Under the pieces are notes generated by a model. That model ran no database searches. It was not told the origin of the DNA and was given only the letters and a program-made list of their open reading frames with translations. A stretch of 64,000 nt of DNA from IMG/VR virus record IMGVR_UViG_3300044952_000182, positions 1,578-65,577 of that record. One strand, written 5' to 3'. This stretch comes from a virus. Both the position numbers and the translations under genes were made by a program. How positions within the stretch are numbered: position 1 is the first letter of the stretch; each line of letters begins with the position of its first letter. This document shows positions 22,737-64,000 of this stretch, piece after piece.

Positions 22737-23020
22737 TTCTCTGTTATTTTAGTGGGTTCCCAAAGATAGGATAGCAAATGATATGGCCTATCACCAAACT
22801 TTGGTACAGCAATATACTGTCTGCCAACACATTTTGTTTTGAGTTCTTCTGGGGTGAGAGTCATCACCTTACCTTTGTATTCAATTTCATAACTCTCTTT
22901 CTTTTGAATACATTCTCTTACACTGTGATCAATTAGATCAACATACTTCTTGTCATGAAGTTTTAAGATTGTCCTTTTCATGTTTATCTGCTTTTGTTTT
23001 TTTGTCGTGGCATTTTTCAC
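22733..23020 (-). CDS. hypothetical protein
   Basis: 95-aa basic protein. Confidence 0.4.
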   Translation of the reverse strand: MKNATTKKQKQINMKRTILKLHDKKYVDLIDHSVRECIQKKESYEIEYKGKVMTLTPEELKTKCVGRQYIAVPKFGDRPYHLLSYLWEPTKITEK

Positions 23021-23429
23021 ATAAGACTTGTAAGTTGTCTACCTCACAGAATAGTCTCTCTACAAATCCTGGTAAGTCTTTTGAACTCATCAAACTACCT
23101 GCAGGATGGATGTGATCAACATTAATCTTCTTCTCTATAAACCAATTCTTGCACACATTGCATTGATACTCATACTTTTGTCTCTTGTTTACACCCTTGT
23201 ACAATCTGCGTGCTTTAAGCTTGCATTCTGTAATAGGCTTCCAAAACCTGGACTTCTGTCTGAGAGCACTGCGTATGAAACTCCAGAATGCTGATTCTGT
23301 CATAGTTCCAGCACATCTTGGTTTACTTACTACTCTTCTAGGTTTTTTAGAGATTCTTTTTGTTGCGTTTTTTATCATAATATATATATAATCCCAGGGT
23401 GTTACCCCTGGGAATACAAATTTAATCAA
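22953..23429 (-). CDS. HNH endonuclease
   Basis: CNVCKNWFIEKKINVDHIHPAGSL ... CEKCHDKK: an HNH motif (CxxC ... H-N ... H) with the second zinc-binding pair. Confidence 0.6.
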   Translation of the reverse strand: MIKFVFPGVTPWDYIYIMIKNATKRISKKPRRVVSKPRCAGTMTESAFWSFIRSALRQKSRFWKPITECKLKARRLYKGVNKRQKYEYQCNVCKNWFIEKKINVDHIHPAGSLMSSKDLPGFVERLFCEVDNLQVLCEKCHDKKTKADKHEKDNLKTS

Positions 23430-24891
23430 TTTCTACAATTCTTTTAGATATTTCTTGCTTTATTTCATCAAGACTCTTAACAATTGTATACACTTCTACT
23501 GCAGATAGGGCAGGAAGATTGAAATCATATTTCATAGCCTCAGCTGTGAATCCTTCTTTAGCTTTCTCAGCCAAGTTATCCAACTCACGTACAGCATAAG
23601 ACTCATCTAACTCAAGAGTATCAAAGTCTAGGTCATGTAAGATTTCTGTTGCTTCCTCACGTGGCACAGTCATAATTGGTAAATACTCATAACATCTACC
23701 TTTTGACTCACCAATACCTACAACCTTCATTGGGTTGATAAGTATAAGAACACTTGTATCACCACAGCCTACATAATGAATCTCATCACTAGTAAAGTGT
23801 AATCCTGCATGTGCACAATCTGCTCTTGACCAATTGCATTCGTCCATAGGCATACTCACTGGTCTACCAATTCTGATGTCAAATGTTCTTGTGTGAGCAT
23901 CTGTAAATCTATTTTCTGCTCTATTAGGCAAGTCAAGATATAAGTCTGTTAAGTTACCAAGATTTTCACCTTTAACTGCAAGAACAAGATCTTCATATTC
24001 ACCTGTACCATCACACTCACAACACTCTTCACTATCTTCCCACTCATCACACTCAGGAATGGTTCCTGTACCATCACAATAAGAACATGTGCATGTTTCT
24101 TTTTTATACATAGCTTCTCCATGAACCATTTTATATTCACCATTCTCTAGGAATACAAAATACTCATCAGGCTTCTTCTTCCATACAGCCTTCACTTTAT
24201 TATATGCATTAGATACAAACTGTACTAATTCTGTAGAACCATGCAATGTAACTACATTTCTCAAAGCTACAAAGAAGCCTTGTTTAGTGATGCTGAAGCT
24301 ATTCTTCTTCAAGAAGTTGAATAGATCATTTGCAACCTCAGCTCTTGGATTCAAGCAGCACCACATAAAGAATCTATGCAAAGCATTGAATTCATCGCTA
24401 TCTGTGTTACCATGTTTACCAACCACTTCTAAGAATTCTTCCACTAATAATGGAGGTAGACTTCTATTGATACCCTTTAAATAAAGAGAACCATTTTTCA
24501 TCTCAAACTCAGGAAGTGTAGCTAAGAACTTGGCACCTGCTGTTATAGCCTTAATTTTCTCATACTCAGCTTCAGCTTTTCTTCTCTCATCTTTTATCTC
24601 CTGTGTGCTCACAAGATCAAATAGACAAGCTTCTGTTTTACAATCTCTAGCAGAATTAAAATGTTCTGATGTTGCTGGAGATTTGGTAATGATATTACCA
24701 TCGTTCATTACAATAGTCAATGTATCATTAACCATTTTAATGTTTAGATAGGGCTTTCCTGAAGAATGATAAGAAGGGGCTGTCTGCCCCTCCTCATTAT
24801 CCAACTGGTTAAAAGCCTGCTCAATTTTGTTTTCTACTACCTTTTCAATTGTGCGTTCAATTGCACCCTTAAACCATTTCAAACTTAGCAT
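23422..24891 (-). CDS. protein with DnaJ-type CxxCxGxG zinc-finger motifs
   Basis: CSYCDGTG and CCECDGTG (two CxxCxGxG repeats, i.e. one DnaJ-like Zn centre) inside a 489-aa protein of otherwise unknown fold; adjacent to the Hsp90-like gene. Confidence 0.5.
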   Translation of the reverse strand: MLSLKWFKGAIERTIEKVVENKIEQAFNQLDNEEGQTAPSYHSSGKPYLNIKMVNDTLTIVMNDGNIITKSPATSEHFNSARDCKTEACLFDLVSTQEIKDERRKAEAEYEKIKAITAGAKFLATLPEFEMKNGSLYLKGINRSLPPLLVEEFLEVVGKHGNTDSDEFNALHRFFMWCCLNPRAEVANDLFNFLKKNSFSITKQGFFVALRNVVTLHGSTELVQFVSNAYNKVKAVWKKKPDEYFVFLENGEYKMVHGEAMYKKETCTCSYCDGTGTIPECDEWEDSEECCECDGTGEYEDLVLAVKGENLGNLTDLYLDLPNRAENRFTDAHTRTFDIRIGRPVSMPMDECNWSRADCAHAGLHFTSDEIHYVGCGDTSVLILINPMKVVGIGESKGRCYEYLPIMTVPREEATEILHDLDFDTLELDESYAVRELDNLAEKAKEGFTAEAMKYDFNLPALSAVEVYTIVKSLDEIKQEISKRIVEID

Positions 24892-24901
24892 GTTTTTCTT
24901 T

Positions 24902-27250
24902 TTAAATTGTTTCTAATTCTGTAATTGTGTCTTGTGTTAATACTTCCTCTAAAGGAGCATCTTCTGTTAATATGAGCTTGTAATGCTCTAGGTTTACTCT
25001 ATGTTTGTGATATTTGAATAAATCAACTATAGCTGTTATCAATGGATTTTGTTTAACATTACTATAACCCATTGTACCTAATATAGCATCTAAGAATGGT
25101 AGCTTAGTAAACACTTCATTAACCTGTTTGTACACTAAATATGTAGGTTGGTCAAATAAATTGTTTGCTATGGCATGTTCTATAACTGCTTTTCTAGTGT
25201 CAGCATCACAATAACTTCTATACTGGCTATTATGATACTGATGTAATGTCTGTAATTTATCTGCTAAATCAATAGATACATCTCTAACTGTATTGATTCT
25301 TTTAAATGTATCACTATATGTTTCAATCAAATCCCTGATTAGAAACTCTGTAGCTATTGTTTTAAATGGTCTGTTTTTACCTTCCATAAATTTATCTATT
25401 GTTATCCAGTTATGTAAATCAGCTTTCTGTAAGTTATCATAGGTTGCTTGGGCCACTATTACAAATAATGCATGTTTATTAAAACAAGACCAAGCATTAT
25501 CCATTTTCTTCTTATCAGCTTCTTTAGCATAGACATTCAACGTAGACCTTTGATGGATCATTTCCATCTTAAATGTTGTAGGAACAAACTTGCAATGTTG
25601 ATCAGATAGATCTATTTGCATTTGTGTACCCACCTTACCAGAGAATTCACCTTTTAGTCTAACCTTCTTAGGACCTGCTACAGCTGCAACTGTTACCTTC
25701 ATTCTTTTAGCTTTCTGAGCATCCTTGAATGATTGTGGTACATCAATAGCATCTACATCTATAAAATCCTTAGCATATAATCCCACTACATATTGAAACT
25801 CTTGAATAAGCTGTCTCCATTGAGTTTTAGGATACATTCCTAAATTTAACACAGAATCATAATATTTAGCATAATCTATTTGACCAGTCTTGCTTCTAAG
25901 CTTAAATGCTGATTTCTTAACAAAATAACTAGTTTTATTATCTGGCAAAAGAGTCCTTAAATAGTCTTGCTTACCTTTAGGAAGAGAATCATCATAAATA
26001 TATACACCACCAACAGCATATCCTGTTAAATCTGACATTCTCAAATGCTCATAATAATAGTTCTTAGCATTTTGAAATTTACCATTACTAAATCTATATT
26101 TAAACTTATACTCAGCAAGTATATACTCTTTAGATTTTACAGCAAGTCTTTCTAGGTTTAATAGCTTTATGTTATCTAGTTTAGGCTGTGCTACAGATAC
26201 AGTAGAATGCTTTACAAGATCATCTATACAAATATCATCTTCTGTGCCTTTGTACCAGCATTTGATATGCTTACTATTTTGACTATAGAATTCCATAATA
26301 GCTTTGATATCGCTTTGTGTAGTGATGGCATCATTAAACTTGTCCATGAATACATTACCCACTGTAGCTATCTTCTTTAGAATGGTTTCTTTAGCTTCTT
26401 TAGTATATCTAATAGCTTCTCTGTTTGGTGTAGGAAATAATCCATCACTAAGACTAAATCTCAAAGCCATCTTCATACGTATTCTATCAATACCAAGCTT
26501 CTCCCAGTCAATTGGATAACTAACATTGTCCAAGCATAAATGCATGTCACTGTTCATAGCTATTTGAGAATATTGAAAATGTTCAGCTCTATGTATTGTA
26601 AAATCATTAGGAACATTATAGCTACCCATTGGTTCTACATCAAAGTAAACATTATCAAAATAAGCTAATTGCTCTTTAATCTTGTTGTGGAAATTATATC
26701 TATCAGAATAATCCACTGGAACAATAACCTTTACACCATTAGGTTCTGCTGTAGGCTTTTCATACAAAAGGTCAATACTGTTTGTATCTTCTCCTTCATA
26801 CATCATATACTTACGTTCCATAAAATCTTTTCTACATACAAAGTAGAAGCTAGAGCTATATGCCAATGGAGCCTTGAAACCAAGACCCATCATGCCTAAT
26901 TCTGTATTGCTATTACGCTTGGTTGACTTACCATACTTACTGATGATGTTACGCACATCATCTGCATCTAAGCCAATACCAAAGTCTTCAACAGCAAATT
27001 CATATGTATTTGCCTGATTGTTTCTTTTAAACGAAACAATAACAGGTTCGTCACATCCAGCTCTTCTGTGACTATCCAGTGCATTAGATGCACATTCTCT
27101 GATAGTAGAGCCTATTGAATCTGAATATAGATTCTTACTTAACATCTGCATCAAGACTTGTGCAGAATCTAAGTCTAGTGACATTTTCACAGTTTCCTGT
27201 GTTGTTCCTTCTTCAAGGATGTGTGCTTCTGTTTGTTTTTCTAAAATCAT
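24902..27250 (-). CDS. GHKL-superfamily ATPase, Hsp90 (HtpG)-like
   Basis: LMQMLSKNLYSDSIGSTIRECASNALDS vs Hsp90 [30 protein letters not shown] (N-box); VEDFGIGLDADDV vs DTGIGMTKADL (G1); LGMMGLGFKAPLAYSSSFYFVCRK vs [23 protein letters not shown] (G2). 782 aa. Confidence 0.6.
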   Translation of the reverse strand: MILEKQTEAHILEEGTTQETVKMSLDLDSAQVLMQMLSKNLYSDSIGSTIRECASNALDSHRRAGCDEPVIVSFKRNNQANTYEFAVEDFGIGLDADDVRNIISKYGKSTKRNSNTELGMMGLGFKAPLAYSSSFYFVCRKDFMERKYMMYEGEDTNSIDLLYEKPTAEPNGVKVIVPVDYSDRYNFHNKIKEQLAYFDNVYFDVEPMGSYNVPNDFTIHRAEHFQYSQIAMNSDMHLCLDNVSYPIDWEKLGIDRIRMKMALRFSLSDGLFPTPNREAIRYTKEAKETILKKIATVGNVFMDKFNDAITTQSDIKAIMEFYSQNSKHIKCWYKGTEDDICIDDLVKHSTVSVAQPKLDNIKLLNLERLAVKSKEYILAEYKFKYRFSNGKFQNAKNYYYEHLRMSDLTGYAVGGVYIYDDSLPKGKQDYLRTLLPDNKTSYFVKKSAFKLRSKTGQIDYAKYYDSVLNLGMYPKTQWRQLIQEFQYVVGLYAKDFIDVDAIDVPQSFKDAQKAKRMKVTVAAVAGPKKVRLKGEFSGKVGTQMQIDLSDQHCKFVPTTFKMEMIHQRSTLNVYAKEADKKKMDNAWSCFNKHALFVIVAQATYDNLQKADLHNWITIDKFMEGKNRPFKTIATEFLIRDLIETYSDTFKRINTVRDVSIDLADKLQTLHQYHNSQYRSYCDADTRKAVIEHAIANNLFDQPTYLVYKQVNEVFTKLPFLDAILGTMGYSNVKQNPLITAIVDLFKYHKHRVNLEHYKLILTEDAPLEEVLTQDTITELETI

Positions 27251-27254
27251 TGTG

Positions 27255-44509: not shown

Positions 44510-44667
44510 TAGTGAGGACAGGATTTGAACCTGTATGTTATACCAAATGGTTAGGGTTATATTGCTTTCTTGCGTCCAAGAAATAATGTAGTAGTTCCCA
44601 TCTACGCCTCACCCTCTGTGTTTGATAGTATAACTCCATTAGCGTCTACCAATTCCGCCACCTCACT
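44510..44667 (-). tRNA. tRNA-like gene (type-II Leu-like D-arm) with a ~80-nt insertion between the anticodon-stem halves
   Basis: Minus strand: acceptor AGTGAGG…CCTCACT (perfect 7 bp) plus discriminator A; D-arm TGGCGGAATTGGTAGACGC identical to bacterial tRNA-Leu; T-arm ACAGG-TTCAAAT-CCTGT. Candidate anticodon stem AATGG…CCATT is separated by ~84 nt that contains its own hairpins. Confidence 0.4.
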
Positions 44668-62031: not shown

Positions 62032-64000
62032 ATGGCTTGCAATCCTGGCGATCCTTGTTATAACGCATATTATCAACCTAGTGAAAACTGTGGTTCTATC
62101 CCTTGTGAAACTACAGCAGATCGTGTTATATATAATGGACCTAACCTTCCTTGTTCAGGAATTCAAACTGGAGAAAACTTAGACTGTGCTCTATCAAAAA
62201 TAGATGATGCTCTTTGTAATGGTGTTGTTGGTCTTAATGGTACCTCTGGTACTTCAGGTATATCTGGCTCGTCTGGCATATCTGGAACCAATGGAACATC
62301 TGCAACTTCTGGTGTTACAGGTCCTTCTGGAACAAATGGTACTTCTGGTTCATCTGGAATTACAGGTACATCTGGAACATCATCAAGTGGTTCTAGTGGT
62401 ACTAGTGGCTCTTCTGGTAGAGCTGGTTCAAATGGCACTAGTGGTTCTGCTGGTGTGAGTGGCACAGGTGGTACAAGTGGTACTTCAGGTACTTCTGCTA
62501 CTAGTGGTACTTCAGGTACTGATGGTTCAAATGGAACTTCTGCTACTTCTGGAACAGATGGAAGTAGTGGAACTAGTGGTAGAGATGCCACAGCAGGAAC
62601 ATCTGGTCAAGATGGAACATCTGGTACAAGTGCAAGTTCTGGTACCTCTGCTTCTAGTGGATTAACTGGTACAGCTGGAACATCTGGAACATCTGGCACA
62701 TCAGCATCTTCTGGAACTGCAGGTCAAGATGGAGATAGATATTTAACAAGTTCTACAACTTCTTTATTAATAGGAACAGGATCAAAAAGTTTAACAGTAG
62801 GAACAGGGTTAGCATATAGTGTTGCACAGACAGCTATCATAGTATATGATGTAAGTAATACAATGCAAGGAACTGTTACCTCTTATAATAGTGGAACAGG
62901 TGCATTAGTAATTAATGTCACCACCATAGCAGGTGCAGGAACCTATGCTGTATGGACAGTAAATCTGTTTGGTGCATCTGGTGGTAATGGTACTTCTGGA
63001 ATAGCTGGTACTTCTGGCACAGCTGGTACGTCTGCTTCTTCAGGTTCATCTGGTTCTTCAGGGTCATCTGGTACTTCAGGTACCACAGGTACATCTGGAA
63101 CATCTGCTTCTTCAGGTAGCTCAGGAAGTTCAGGTAGCTCAGGATCAACAGGTACATCAGGTACTGCTGCCACTTCTGGTACAAGTACTGGTACAAGTGG
63201 TACAAGTGGTGTAAATGCAACTTCAGGAACTGCAGGTATAAATGGTTCTTCTGGAACTGCAGGTACAAGCGGAGCGAGTGTGACAGGTCCTTCAGGATCT
63301 TCAGGTACCTCAGGGTCATCAGGATCATCAGGCTCCTCTGGATCTTCTGGATCTTCAGGTACTTCTGCTTCTTCTGGTTCAAGTGGATCAAGTGGATCAA
63401 GTGGATCATCTGGTTCTAGTGGGTCAAGTGGTACAGCTGGAGCTAATGGTGCTGTTGGTTCTTCAGGAACATCAGGATCTTCAGGATCTTCAGGAACAAG
63501 TGGAGCTAATGGAACAAGTGGTTCATCTGGATCTTCTGGATCTTCTGGTTCAAGTGGCACTAGTGGTGCTAATGGAGCAAATGGTTCATCTGGTACTTCT
63601 GGAGCATCTGGTACAAGTGGTTCTTCAGGATCAAGTGGATCAAGTGGATCAAGTGGATCTAGTGGAACATCTGGAGCTAGTGGTACATCTGGATCATCTG
63701 GTAGTTCTGGTTCTAGTGGCTCTTCTGGATCTTCAGGAACATCTGGAGCTAATGGTGGTAATGGTTCCTCTGGAACATCTGGTGCTACTGGTGGTCCTGG
63801 ATCACCAGGAACAAGTGGGTCGTCTGGTTCTAGTGGTTCTTCTGGATCTTCTGGAACATCTGGTGCTACTGGTGGTCCTGGAGGAAATGGTTCTAGTGGT
63901 ACAAGTGGAGCTAACGGAGGGAATGGTAGCAGTGGAACAAGTGGAACAAGTGGTGCAAGTGGTTCTTCTGGAACTGCAGGTACATCTGGTGCGAATGGAG
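62032..64000 (+). CDS. collagen-like (Gly-X-Y) tail fibre protein; 3-prime end beyond window
   Basis: Frame 62032 onward has no stops. N-terminal Cys-rich region, then >500 aa of GTS/GSS/GTA triplets. These are interrupted by a ~75-aa non-collagenous segment (DRYLTSSTTSLLIGTG…VWTVNLF). Confidence 0.7.
   Translation, partial: MACNPGDPCYNAYYQPSENCGSIPCETTADRVIYNGPNLPCSGIQTGENLDCALSKIDDALCNGVVGLNGTSGTSGISGSSGISGTNGTSATSGVTGPSGTNGTSGSSGITGTSGTSSSGSSGTSGSSGRAGSNGTSGSAGVSGTGGTSGTSGTSATSGTSGTDGSNGTSATSGTDGSSGTSGRDATAGTSGQDGTSGTSASSGTSASSGLTGTAGTSGTSGTSASSGTAGQDGDRYLTSSTTSLLIGTGSKSLTVGTGLAYSVAQTAIIVYDVSNTMQGTVTSYNSGTGALVINVTTIAGAGTYAVWTVNLFGASGGNGTSGIAGTSGTAGTSASSGSSGSSGSSGTSGTTGTSGTSASSGSSGSSGSSGSTGTSGTAATSGTSTGTSGTSGVNATSGTAGINGSSGTAGTSGASVTGPSGSSGTSGSSGSSGSSGSSGSSGTSASSGSSGSSGSSGSSGSSGSSGTAGANGAVGSSGTSGSSGSSGTSGANGTSGSSGSSGSSGSSGTSGANGANGSSGTSGASGTSGSSGSSGSSGSSGSSGTSGASGTSGSSGSSGSSGSSGSSGTSGANGGNGSSGTSGATGGPGSPGTSGSSGSSGSSGSSGTSGATGGPGGNGSSGTSGANGGNGSSGTSGTSGASGSSGTAGTSGANG

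Follow-up and report, generated by a model that had tools for sequence, protein, structure and literature searches.

An rIIA–rIIB gene pair with a GHL-type ATPase module and a putative zinc knuckle in an uncultured phage

Two adjacent genes were characterized in a 64,000-nucleotide (nt) stretch of viral DNA (IMG/VR record IMGVR_UViG_3300044952_000182, positions 1,578 to 65,577), referred to hereafter as the window. They encode proteins of 782 and 489 amino acids (aa) on the minus strand, at 24902..27250 and 23422..24891, exactly as placed by an earlier reading of the letters alone (the sequence-only reading), which had taken them for an Hsp90-like ATPase and a DnaJ-type zinc-finger protein paired as chaperone and co-chaperone. 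Matches to PHROG 612, to the PHROG RIIB families and, by BLASTP, to the T4 proteins show that the pairing is instead that of rIIA with rIIB; the two proteins are assigned to these families because they display the testable defining features. We consider it very probable that the genes are an rIIA–rIIB pair, comprising a GHL ATPase rIIA and a knuckle-bearing rIIB, with a role in counter-defence. The earlier interpretation is partly supported, being right on the domains and wrong on the system and its rarity.

Results

The 782-aa protein is an rIIA orthologue

The 782-aa protein matched the PHROG 612 profile (phrog_612, 'RIIA lysis inhibitor') with an E-value of 1.6e-58, residues 1-730 aligning with profile positions 1-709 of 725; T4 rIIA scores 9e-250 against the same model. 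BLASTP aligned the protein with T4 rIIA across residues 1-294 (E = 2e-17). Of 50,697 phage records searched with tblastn, 2,557 contained homologues; annotations among the matches listed were mostly rIIA, and Escherichia phages (900 records) and Klebsiella phages (332) dominated by organism name. Taken together, the PHROG 612, T4 and tblastn matches identify the protein as an rIIA orthologue, and the spread of its homologues contradicts the view that an Hsp90-like protein is unusual for a phage. The features of the gene are as follows.

24902..27250, minus strand: rIIA orthologue, 782 aa, uninterrupted (PHROG 612, BLASTP to T4 rIIA, tblastn)
26666..27172, minus strand: GHKL (Bergerat-fold) ATPase domain, rIIA residues 27-195 (N-box, G1 and G2 boxes)
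26261..26665, minus strand: second domain of the GHL-type module, rIIA residues 196-330 (R277 invariant, E278 nearly so)
24905..26260, minus strand: variable C-terminal region, rIIA residues 331-782 (PHROG 612 cover to residue 730; low AlphaFold2 confidence)

Residues 331-782 vary more among close relatives, and the rIIA C-terminus is described as highly variable in the literature (PMC7824862).

The 489-aa protein is a divergent rIIB

Three PHROG RIIB families were matched by the 489-aa protein: 609 (E = 2.8e-15), 11221 (5.4e-9) and 36818 (3.9e-6). BLASTP to T4 rIIB gave two colinear blocks, residues 105-213 on T4 118-217 and residues 329-403 on T4 221-301 (E = 2e-6 and 3e-6), between which some 115 residues (214-328) face only three T4 residues. 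When the protein was aligned with seven reference rIIBs (T4, Xoo-sp13, RsoM2USA, Dorin, Seuss, IAS and cr116_1), invariant positions shared by all eight were N181-P182, G205, H333, G363-x-H365, P387, K397, R399 and Y403. An AlphaFold2 model made with 105 diverse homologues had a predicted local distance difference test score (pLDDT) of 87.9 and a predicted template modelling score (pTM) of 0.80. Foldseek comparison of this model with BFVD gave 30 matches at E<=1e-3 and probability 1.00; all the named ones were rIIBs, among them those of Caulobacter phage Seuss, Aeromonas phages, N4-like phages, PhiW-14 and the RB43 rIIA–rIIB fusion. A homologue 39% identical to the 489-aa protein (P0150) bears Pfam PF26926, 'Phage_T4_rIIB'. 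Pfam searches of the protein itself returned nothing but Anti-TRAP (E = 0.84), on the Cys motifs, and PDB sequence searches returned nothing at E<=1 for the protein alone or at E<=10 for a 105-sequence profile. We conclude that the 489-aa protein is a divergent rIIB, with the following features.

23422..24891, minus strand: divergent rIIB orthologue, 489 aa, separated from the rIIA stop by 10 nt (PHROG RIIB, BLASTP, Foldseek)
23908..24252, minus strand: domain inserted relative to T4-type and crAss-type rIIB, residues 214-328 (gap in 7/7 reference rIIBs)
23992..24099, minus strand: putative clade-specific Cys4 zinc knuckle, rIIB residues 265-300 (C269, C272, C290 and C293 in two CxxCxGxG motifs)
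23662..23907, minus strand: conserved C-terminal rIIB core, residues 329-410 (TDAH333, GLH365F, P387, K397-x-R399, Y403)

The inserted domain is conserved within this metagenomic rIIB family; the region aligned to it measured 67-148 aa, with a median of 76, in 105 family representatives. The core was modelled with pLDDT >90 across most of its length. It is conceivable, although very improbable, that this core represents an ADP-ribosyltransferase-like domain that binds NAD, in which case rIIB would be the pair's enzymatic effector. Comparison of the rIIB family with the PARP-domain protein of a related contig by hhalign revealed no relationship, and a literature search on rIIB with ADP-ribosyltransferase found nothing relevant, which does not in itself establish novelty. 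In a divergent relative whose rIIB homologue is P0213, a 399-aa protein with a Pfam PARP domain (PF00644) is encoded ~2.7 kb downstream of the rII pair (L014 9038-10237; L015 7714-8913).

The pair is conserved among large phages

An rIIA gene (660-800 aa) directly followed by rIIB (310-375 aa) was found in Xoo-sp13, RsoM2USA (where it is unannotated), Rhodococcus phage Dorin and Caulobacter phage Seuss. The arrangement is the same in T4, lying across the record ends, and the pair is also present in the crAss-like IAS virus and cr116_1, which share wider synteny with the window. In three divergent metagenomic relatives of the window rIIB, an rIIA-like gene was immediately upstream in all three. 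An rIIA directly upstream of rIIB on the same strand was a feature of the window, of 6 reference phages and of these 3 relatives. We conclude that the pair is common in large phages, being kept in T4, jumbo, actinophage, Caulobacter and crAss-like phages. Natural fusions support a physical partnership: phrog_609 spans both proteins, and RB43 carries a 'RIIA-RIIB'.

The rIIA ATPase module is nearest to Hsp90

The strings on which the sequence-only reading had based a GHKL assignment (KNLYSDSIGSTIRECASNALDS, FGIGLDADD and GMMGLGFKAPLAYSSSFYFVCRK) are found in the 782-aa translation. They belong to an N-box (E52-x3-N56-x2-D59), a G1 box (D89-F-G91-I-G93) and a G2 box (G119-x2-G122-x-G124). A profile was made from 114 diverse homologues, gathered by profile search of distant rIIAs; Y42, R51, E52, N56, D59, D89, K111, G119, G122, G124, G172, Y245 and R277 were invariant in 114/114 sequences, the GHKL residues among them. 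The ATP-binding and catalytic residues of rIIA are all intact. As far as sequence conservation can tell, these invariant residues suggest that the ATPase is active and that the second domain supplies a conserved Arg, R277, a candidate gamma-phosphate sensor. We conclude that the first ~310 residues of rIIA are a two-domain GHL-type ATPase module.

In two lineages rIIA is split at the same place by a homing or intron-type endonuclease gene. In cr116_1 (L004 1327-4533) the 125-aa rIIA fragment ends exactly at the counterpart of G119, the first Gly in the ATP-binding G2 box, and on the P0122 contig a 122-aa HATPase_c fragment is followed by a LAGLIDADG gene and then by a 602-aa remainder. The window rIIA is intact.

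From the single sequence, the likeness of rIIA to Hsp90 was ambiguous. Pfam recognized a generic GHKL domain only (HATPase_c_3, E = 4.4e-5; HATPase_c, E = 8.1e-5; residues 46-141), with no match to the HSP90 family, and a phmmer search of the PDB gave Topo VI-B (0.013) and MORC2 (0.078). The NCBIfam values for Topo VI-B (2.2e-7), an HSP90-family model (5.4e-7) and the sacsin ATP-binding domain (8.5e-7) were all far below the cut-offs. When the 114-rIIA profile was compared with the PDB, the best 23 sequences were all of the Hsp90 family (TRAP1, 2.9e-8; Hsp83, 1.2e-6; HtpG, 2.5e-6), followed by Topo VI-B at 6.8e-4. The alignment with Hsp90 begins upstream of the N-box, taking in the 'LYS..RE...N..D' helix. 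Comparisons of the module with other GHL proteins scored 15.9 for ParE, 15.8 for Topo II, 15.7 for MORC2, 15.4 for T6 topo II, 14.9 for MORC3, 14.8 for MutL, 14.6 for SMCHD1 and 14.4 for Topo VI-B, with histidine kinases at <=9. We conclude that the rIIA ATPase module resembles Hsp90 most closely, by a small margin in structure and a wider one in sequence profiles. A profile search, proposed with the sequence-only reading, thus favoured Hsp90 when the family was used and was equivocal for the protein alone.

This nearness is confined to the N-terminal ATPase module. Even with full-length TRAP1 and HtpG, the rIIA profile matches go no further than position ~185-189, and Pfam PF00183, covering the Hsp90 middle and C-terminal dimerisation domains, gave no match in six diverse rIIAs at E<=1. 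As an Hsp90, the protein qualifies by its N-terminal ATPase domain and not, on these profiles, by middle and C-terminal domains. A literature search on rIIA with Hsp90 found nothing relevant, which is not evidence of novelty.

A putative zinc knuckle marks one clade of rIIB

The sequence-only reading singled out two cysteine motifs in the 489-aa protein; CSYCDGTG begins at residue 269 and CCECDGTG at 290. Their presence is beyond chance, since 119/120 close relatives keep both; across these relatives the entropy of the eight Cys/Gly motif positions is zero at seven and 0.07 at the remaining one. Between the motifs, the acidic spacer is the most variable stretch of rIIB (H 1.06 vs a protein mean of 0.32), and the extra cysteines C267, C281 and C291 are not conserved among the 120. 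In the model the segment lies, at lower confidence, at the tip of a hairpin between strands 262-268 and 298-304. The motifs are best read as one Cys4 zinc knuckle of the DnaJ cysteine-rich domain (DnaJ-CR)/Anti-TRAP type, presenting a fast-evolving loop.

A representative search returned 1,211 relatives of the 489-aa protein, mostly as two matching stretches with residues ~259-305 skipped. The CxxCxGxG pair was present in 2/105 near-full-length representatives; the loop at this site was just 0-10 aa in 100/105, and two others had long inserts without Cys. Both divergent knuckle-bearing representatives retain the four CxxC cysteines around a wholly different spacer and give weak DnaJ_CXXCXGXG matches (best E = 1.3e-3). 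The motifs are absent from the rIIBs of all seven reference phages named above. The knuckle is a ~40-aa clade-specific insertion in rIIB, a minor lineage-specific variation. The co-occurrence in related phages envisaged for the pair is therefore borne out for rIIA–rIIB, which is conserved widely, and not for the zinc motif.

NCBIfam DnaJ models matched the 489-aa protein only with E-values of 0.16-0.93, confined to the Cys motifs. No DnaJ Pfam match, HPD tripeptide or DnaJ C-terminal domain was found in it. With two repeats rather than four, with no J domain, HPD or DnaJ C-terminal domain, and with a motif that is not family-wide, the protein is ruled out as a DnaJ; membership fails on every defining feature save the motif itself. 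What survives of the DnaJ-type assignment is a DnaJ-CR/Anti-TRAP-type zinc motif, carried by a divergent rIIB. A dedicated chaperone module of the phage, with an Hsp90 paralogue and a DnaJ-type zinc-finger co-chaperone folding or remodelling proteins together, could draw on this motif and on the Hsp90-nearest ATPase domain; the missing J domain and the lack of a PF00183 match, together with the rII family matches of both proteins, make it highly unlikely.

Genome setting of the pair

The window is clearly phage DNA, with terminase, portal and major head genes in its right arm. rIIA and rIIB lie inside the left arm, a replication module running leftward (DNA polymerase, helicases, primase, ribonucleotide reductase (RNR) and a UvsX-like recombinase). 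The pair belongs to an uncultured phage of ~117 kb that is distant kin of crAss-like and Cellulophaga phages. An identical 782-aa protein is encoded on a 117,556-bp JGI metagenome contig, where both it and the 489-aa protein are labelled 'hypothetical'. A megablast search of GenBank phages with window positions 20-32 kb gave no match, and there is no close GenBank phage at the DNA level. Terminase comparison places Leptolyngbya phage Lbo-JY46 (39.6%) nearest among cultured relatives, followed by Cellulophaga phages phi4:1 and phi17:2 (31%) and crAss-like phages (27%).

Between 20601 and 30561 the minus strand encodes a primase, a DUF932 protein, a uracil-DNA glycosylase (UDG)-like protein, two small open reading frames (ORFs), rIIA, rIIB, an HNH protein, further small ORFs and a PD-(D/E)XK exonuclease, with RNR further on. 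This order mirrors the replication module of the Steigviridae (crAss-like IAS virus and cr116_1), with the UDG-like gene placed differently relative to the rII pair. ORFs on the opposite strand across the rIIA–rIIB region are all <80 aa and without support. The rIIA ATG is 4 nt past the upstream stop codon, and the rIIB ATG 10 nt past the rIIA stop. The spacers before rIIA (27251-27254, 'caca') and rIIB (24892-24901, 'aaagaaaaac') are short, A-rich and without a Shine-Dalgarno-like sequence, a pattern possibly consistent with a host whose translation starts do not depend on such sequences. PADLOC defence models gave no matches to rIIA, rIIB or the two small upstream ORFs. Two features lie directly downstream of rIIB.

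23392..23413, minus strand: possible transcription-unit end, a GC-rich hairpin of 8 pairs (6 G-C) followed by T-rich TTATATATAT (terminator-like scan; 9 nt past the rIIB stop)
22953-23378, minus strand: HNH endonuclease gene (PHROG 1985, E = 2.4e-23), directly downstream of rIIB, beyond the hairpin

The hairpin is intergenic if the HNH gene is begun at its second Met, as the gene caller has it (141-aa product); given that call, the TTG start listed for this gene at 23429 is probably wrong. The gene is probably a free-standing homing endonuclease.

Elsewhere in the window, an Rfam tRNA match (44510-44667, minus strand; 36.7 bits, above the gathering score) sits at the strand switch between the replication and structural modules. 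The match covers all 71 positions of the model but extends over 158 nt, so it contains an insertion of ~87 nt, which may be an intron. No tRNA was detected by ARAGORN in any part of the window. From 62400 to 64000 the GC content, ~0.34 in the rest of the window, climbs steadily from ~0.33 to 0.49 towards the right end, and the GC skew there is strongly positive.

Discussion

The rII locus is characterized in the literature as known for long yet poorly understood. In T4, rIIA and rIIB are both needed for growth when the RexAB abortive-infection system is present; this requirement, and rapid lysis on mutation, are known for T4 only (PMC8594841; bioRxiv 10.1101/2025.11.20.689424). RIIB expression by itself triggers a CARD/gasdermin defence system (PMC10312443). 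By analogy with T4, the rIIA and rIIB of the window would act together early in infection as a counter-defence module, allowing the phage to survive host or prophage abortive-infection systems as the T4 proteins do RexAB. The anatomy of rIIA suggests an ATP-driven dimerising clamp like other GHL ATPases, in which E52 would be the catalytic base, N56 would bind Mg2+ and R277 of the second domain would sense the gamma-phosphate. rIIB would be the partner or adaptor of rIIA, and the knuckle loop may be a surface contact site evolving under arms-race or diversifying pressure.

Several observations weigh against this reading. The Pfam GHKL scores of the single 782-aa sequence were just under the gathering thresholds, and the C-terminal half of rIIA was poorly modelled by AlphaFold2, with low confidence. 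Identity to T4 is low (~23% for rIIA, 28-30% in the rIIB blocks), so that function may have drifted. No transmembrane segments were found in rIIA or rIIB, and the membrane association reported for the T4 rII proteins therefore cannot be inferred here. Finally, the position of the locus in the replication module would also fit a DNA-related role. Such a role would be filled by a DNA-directed GHL ATPase (a MORC, Topo VI-B or MutL-like clamp) that serves phage replication, recombination or transcription with a DNA-binding partner, rather than acting on host defence. We regard this as unlikely. Pfam searches of the window rIIA and five other rIIAs revealed no Toprim, CW/coiled-coil, MutL C-terminal endonuclease or Topo VI-A partner match, and thus no detectable DNA-gate or endonuclease domain; no helix–turn–helix (HTH) was detectable in the window rIIB; and resistance to RexAB is the best-documented phenotype of the rII family.

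A counter-defence pair need not exclude chaperone-like chemistry. The rIIA–rIIB pair might really be a remodelling machine, with rIIA an Hsp90-derived, ATP-driven clamp and rIIB a client adaptor that, in this clade, has independently gained a DnaJ-type zinc knuckle, its hypervariable acidic loop recognizing a host defence protein. We hold this to be improbable; if true, the 'remodelling module' idea of the sequence-only reading would be mechanistically right, and the neutralization of Rex-like abortive-infection systems would be accounted for.

As a finding this is ordinary, the re-identification in an unannotated metagenomic phage of the gene pair most classical in phage genetics. Its interest lies in the anatomy. 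An rIIA family with an Hsp90-nearest ATPase, all its catalytic residues and an invariant second-domain Arg offers concrete mutants with which to address ATP hydrolysis in counter-defence. In rIIB the core is conserved and accessory domains are swapped: the T4 protein has an HTH, and that of the window an inserted domain bearing the putative zinc knuckle and its fast-evolving loop. Such swapping may point to a site of target recognition.

Comparison with known systems

The Hsp90 family (TRAP1, HtpG, GRP94 and Hsp90) has the N-terminal ATPase module in common with rIIA, which departs from it in the middle and C-terminal domains. The window rIIB shares CxxCxGxG pairs with the DnaJ cysteine-rich domain and the Anti-TRAP knuckle, and its four Cys would ligate one Zn; DnaJ has four repeats (two Zn sites), whereas the window rIIB has two (one predicted Zn site). 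Profile matches of the rIIB knuckle to Anti-TRAP, DnaJ_CXXCXGXG and the DnaJ equivalogs are weak. DnaJ also has a J domain, a G/F region and C-terminal domains, none of which is present in the window rIIB, where the knuckle sits at a hairpin tip in one clade only.

The T4 rIIA/rIIB pair (Benzer's rII locus, 'protector from prophage-induced early lysis') has the same order, rIIA then rIIB, adjacent and on the same strand. Its rIIA, like that of the window, has an N-terminal GHKL ATPase and a variable C-terminus, with full-length family-profile homology, and the rIIB cores are alike in sequence and fold. T4 rIIB is 312 aa long, with an N-terminal HTH-like region, whereas the 489-aa window rIIB lacks this and carries the ~115-aa inserted domain with the zinc knuckle; identity of the pair to T4 is ~23-30%. 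Compared with T4, the window pair lies in a genome related to crAss and Cellulophaga phages and inside a replication module.

The closest annotated relatives are the crAss-like phages (IAS virus and cr116_1; Steigviridae), with 44% identity in the rIIA N-domain and 27-28% in the rIIB core. Their rIIBs, of 320 aa, are without the inserted domain or knuckle, and in cr116_1 an endonuclease gene interrupts rIIA at the G2 box, which is whole in the window. These phages share with the window the primase, rIIA–rIIB, UDG, PD-(D/E)XK exonuclease and RNR genes.

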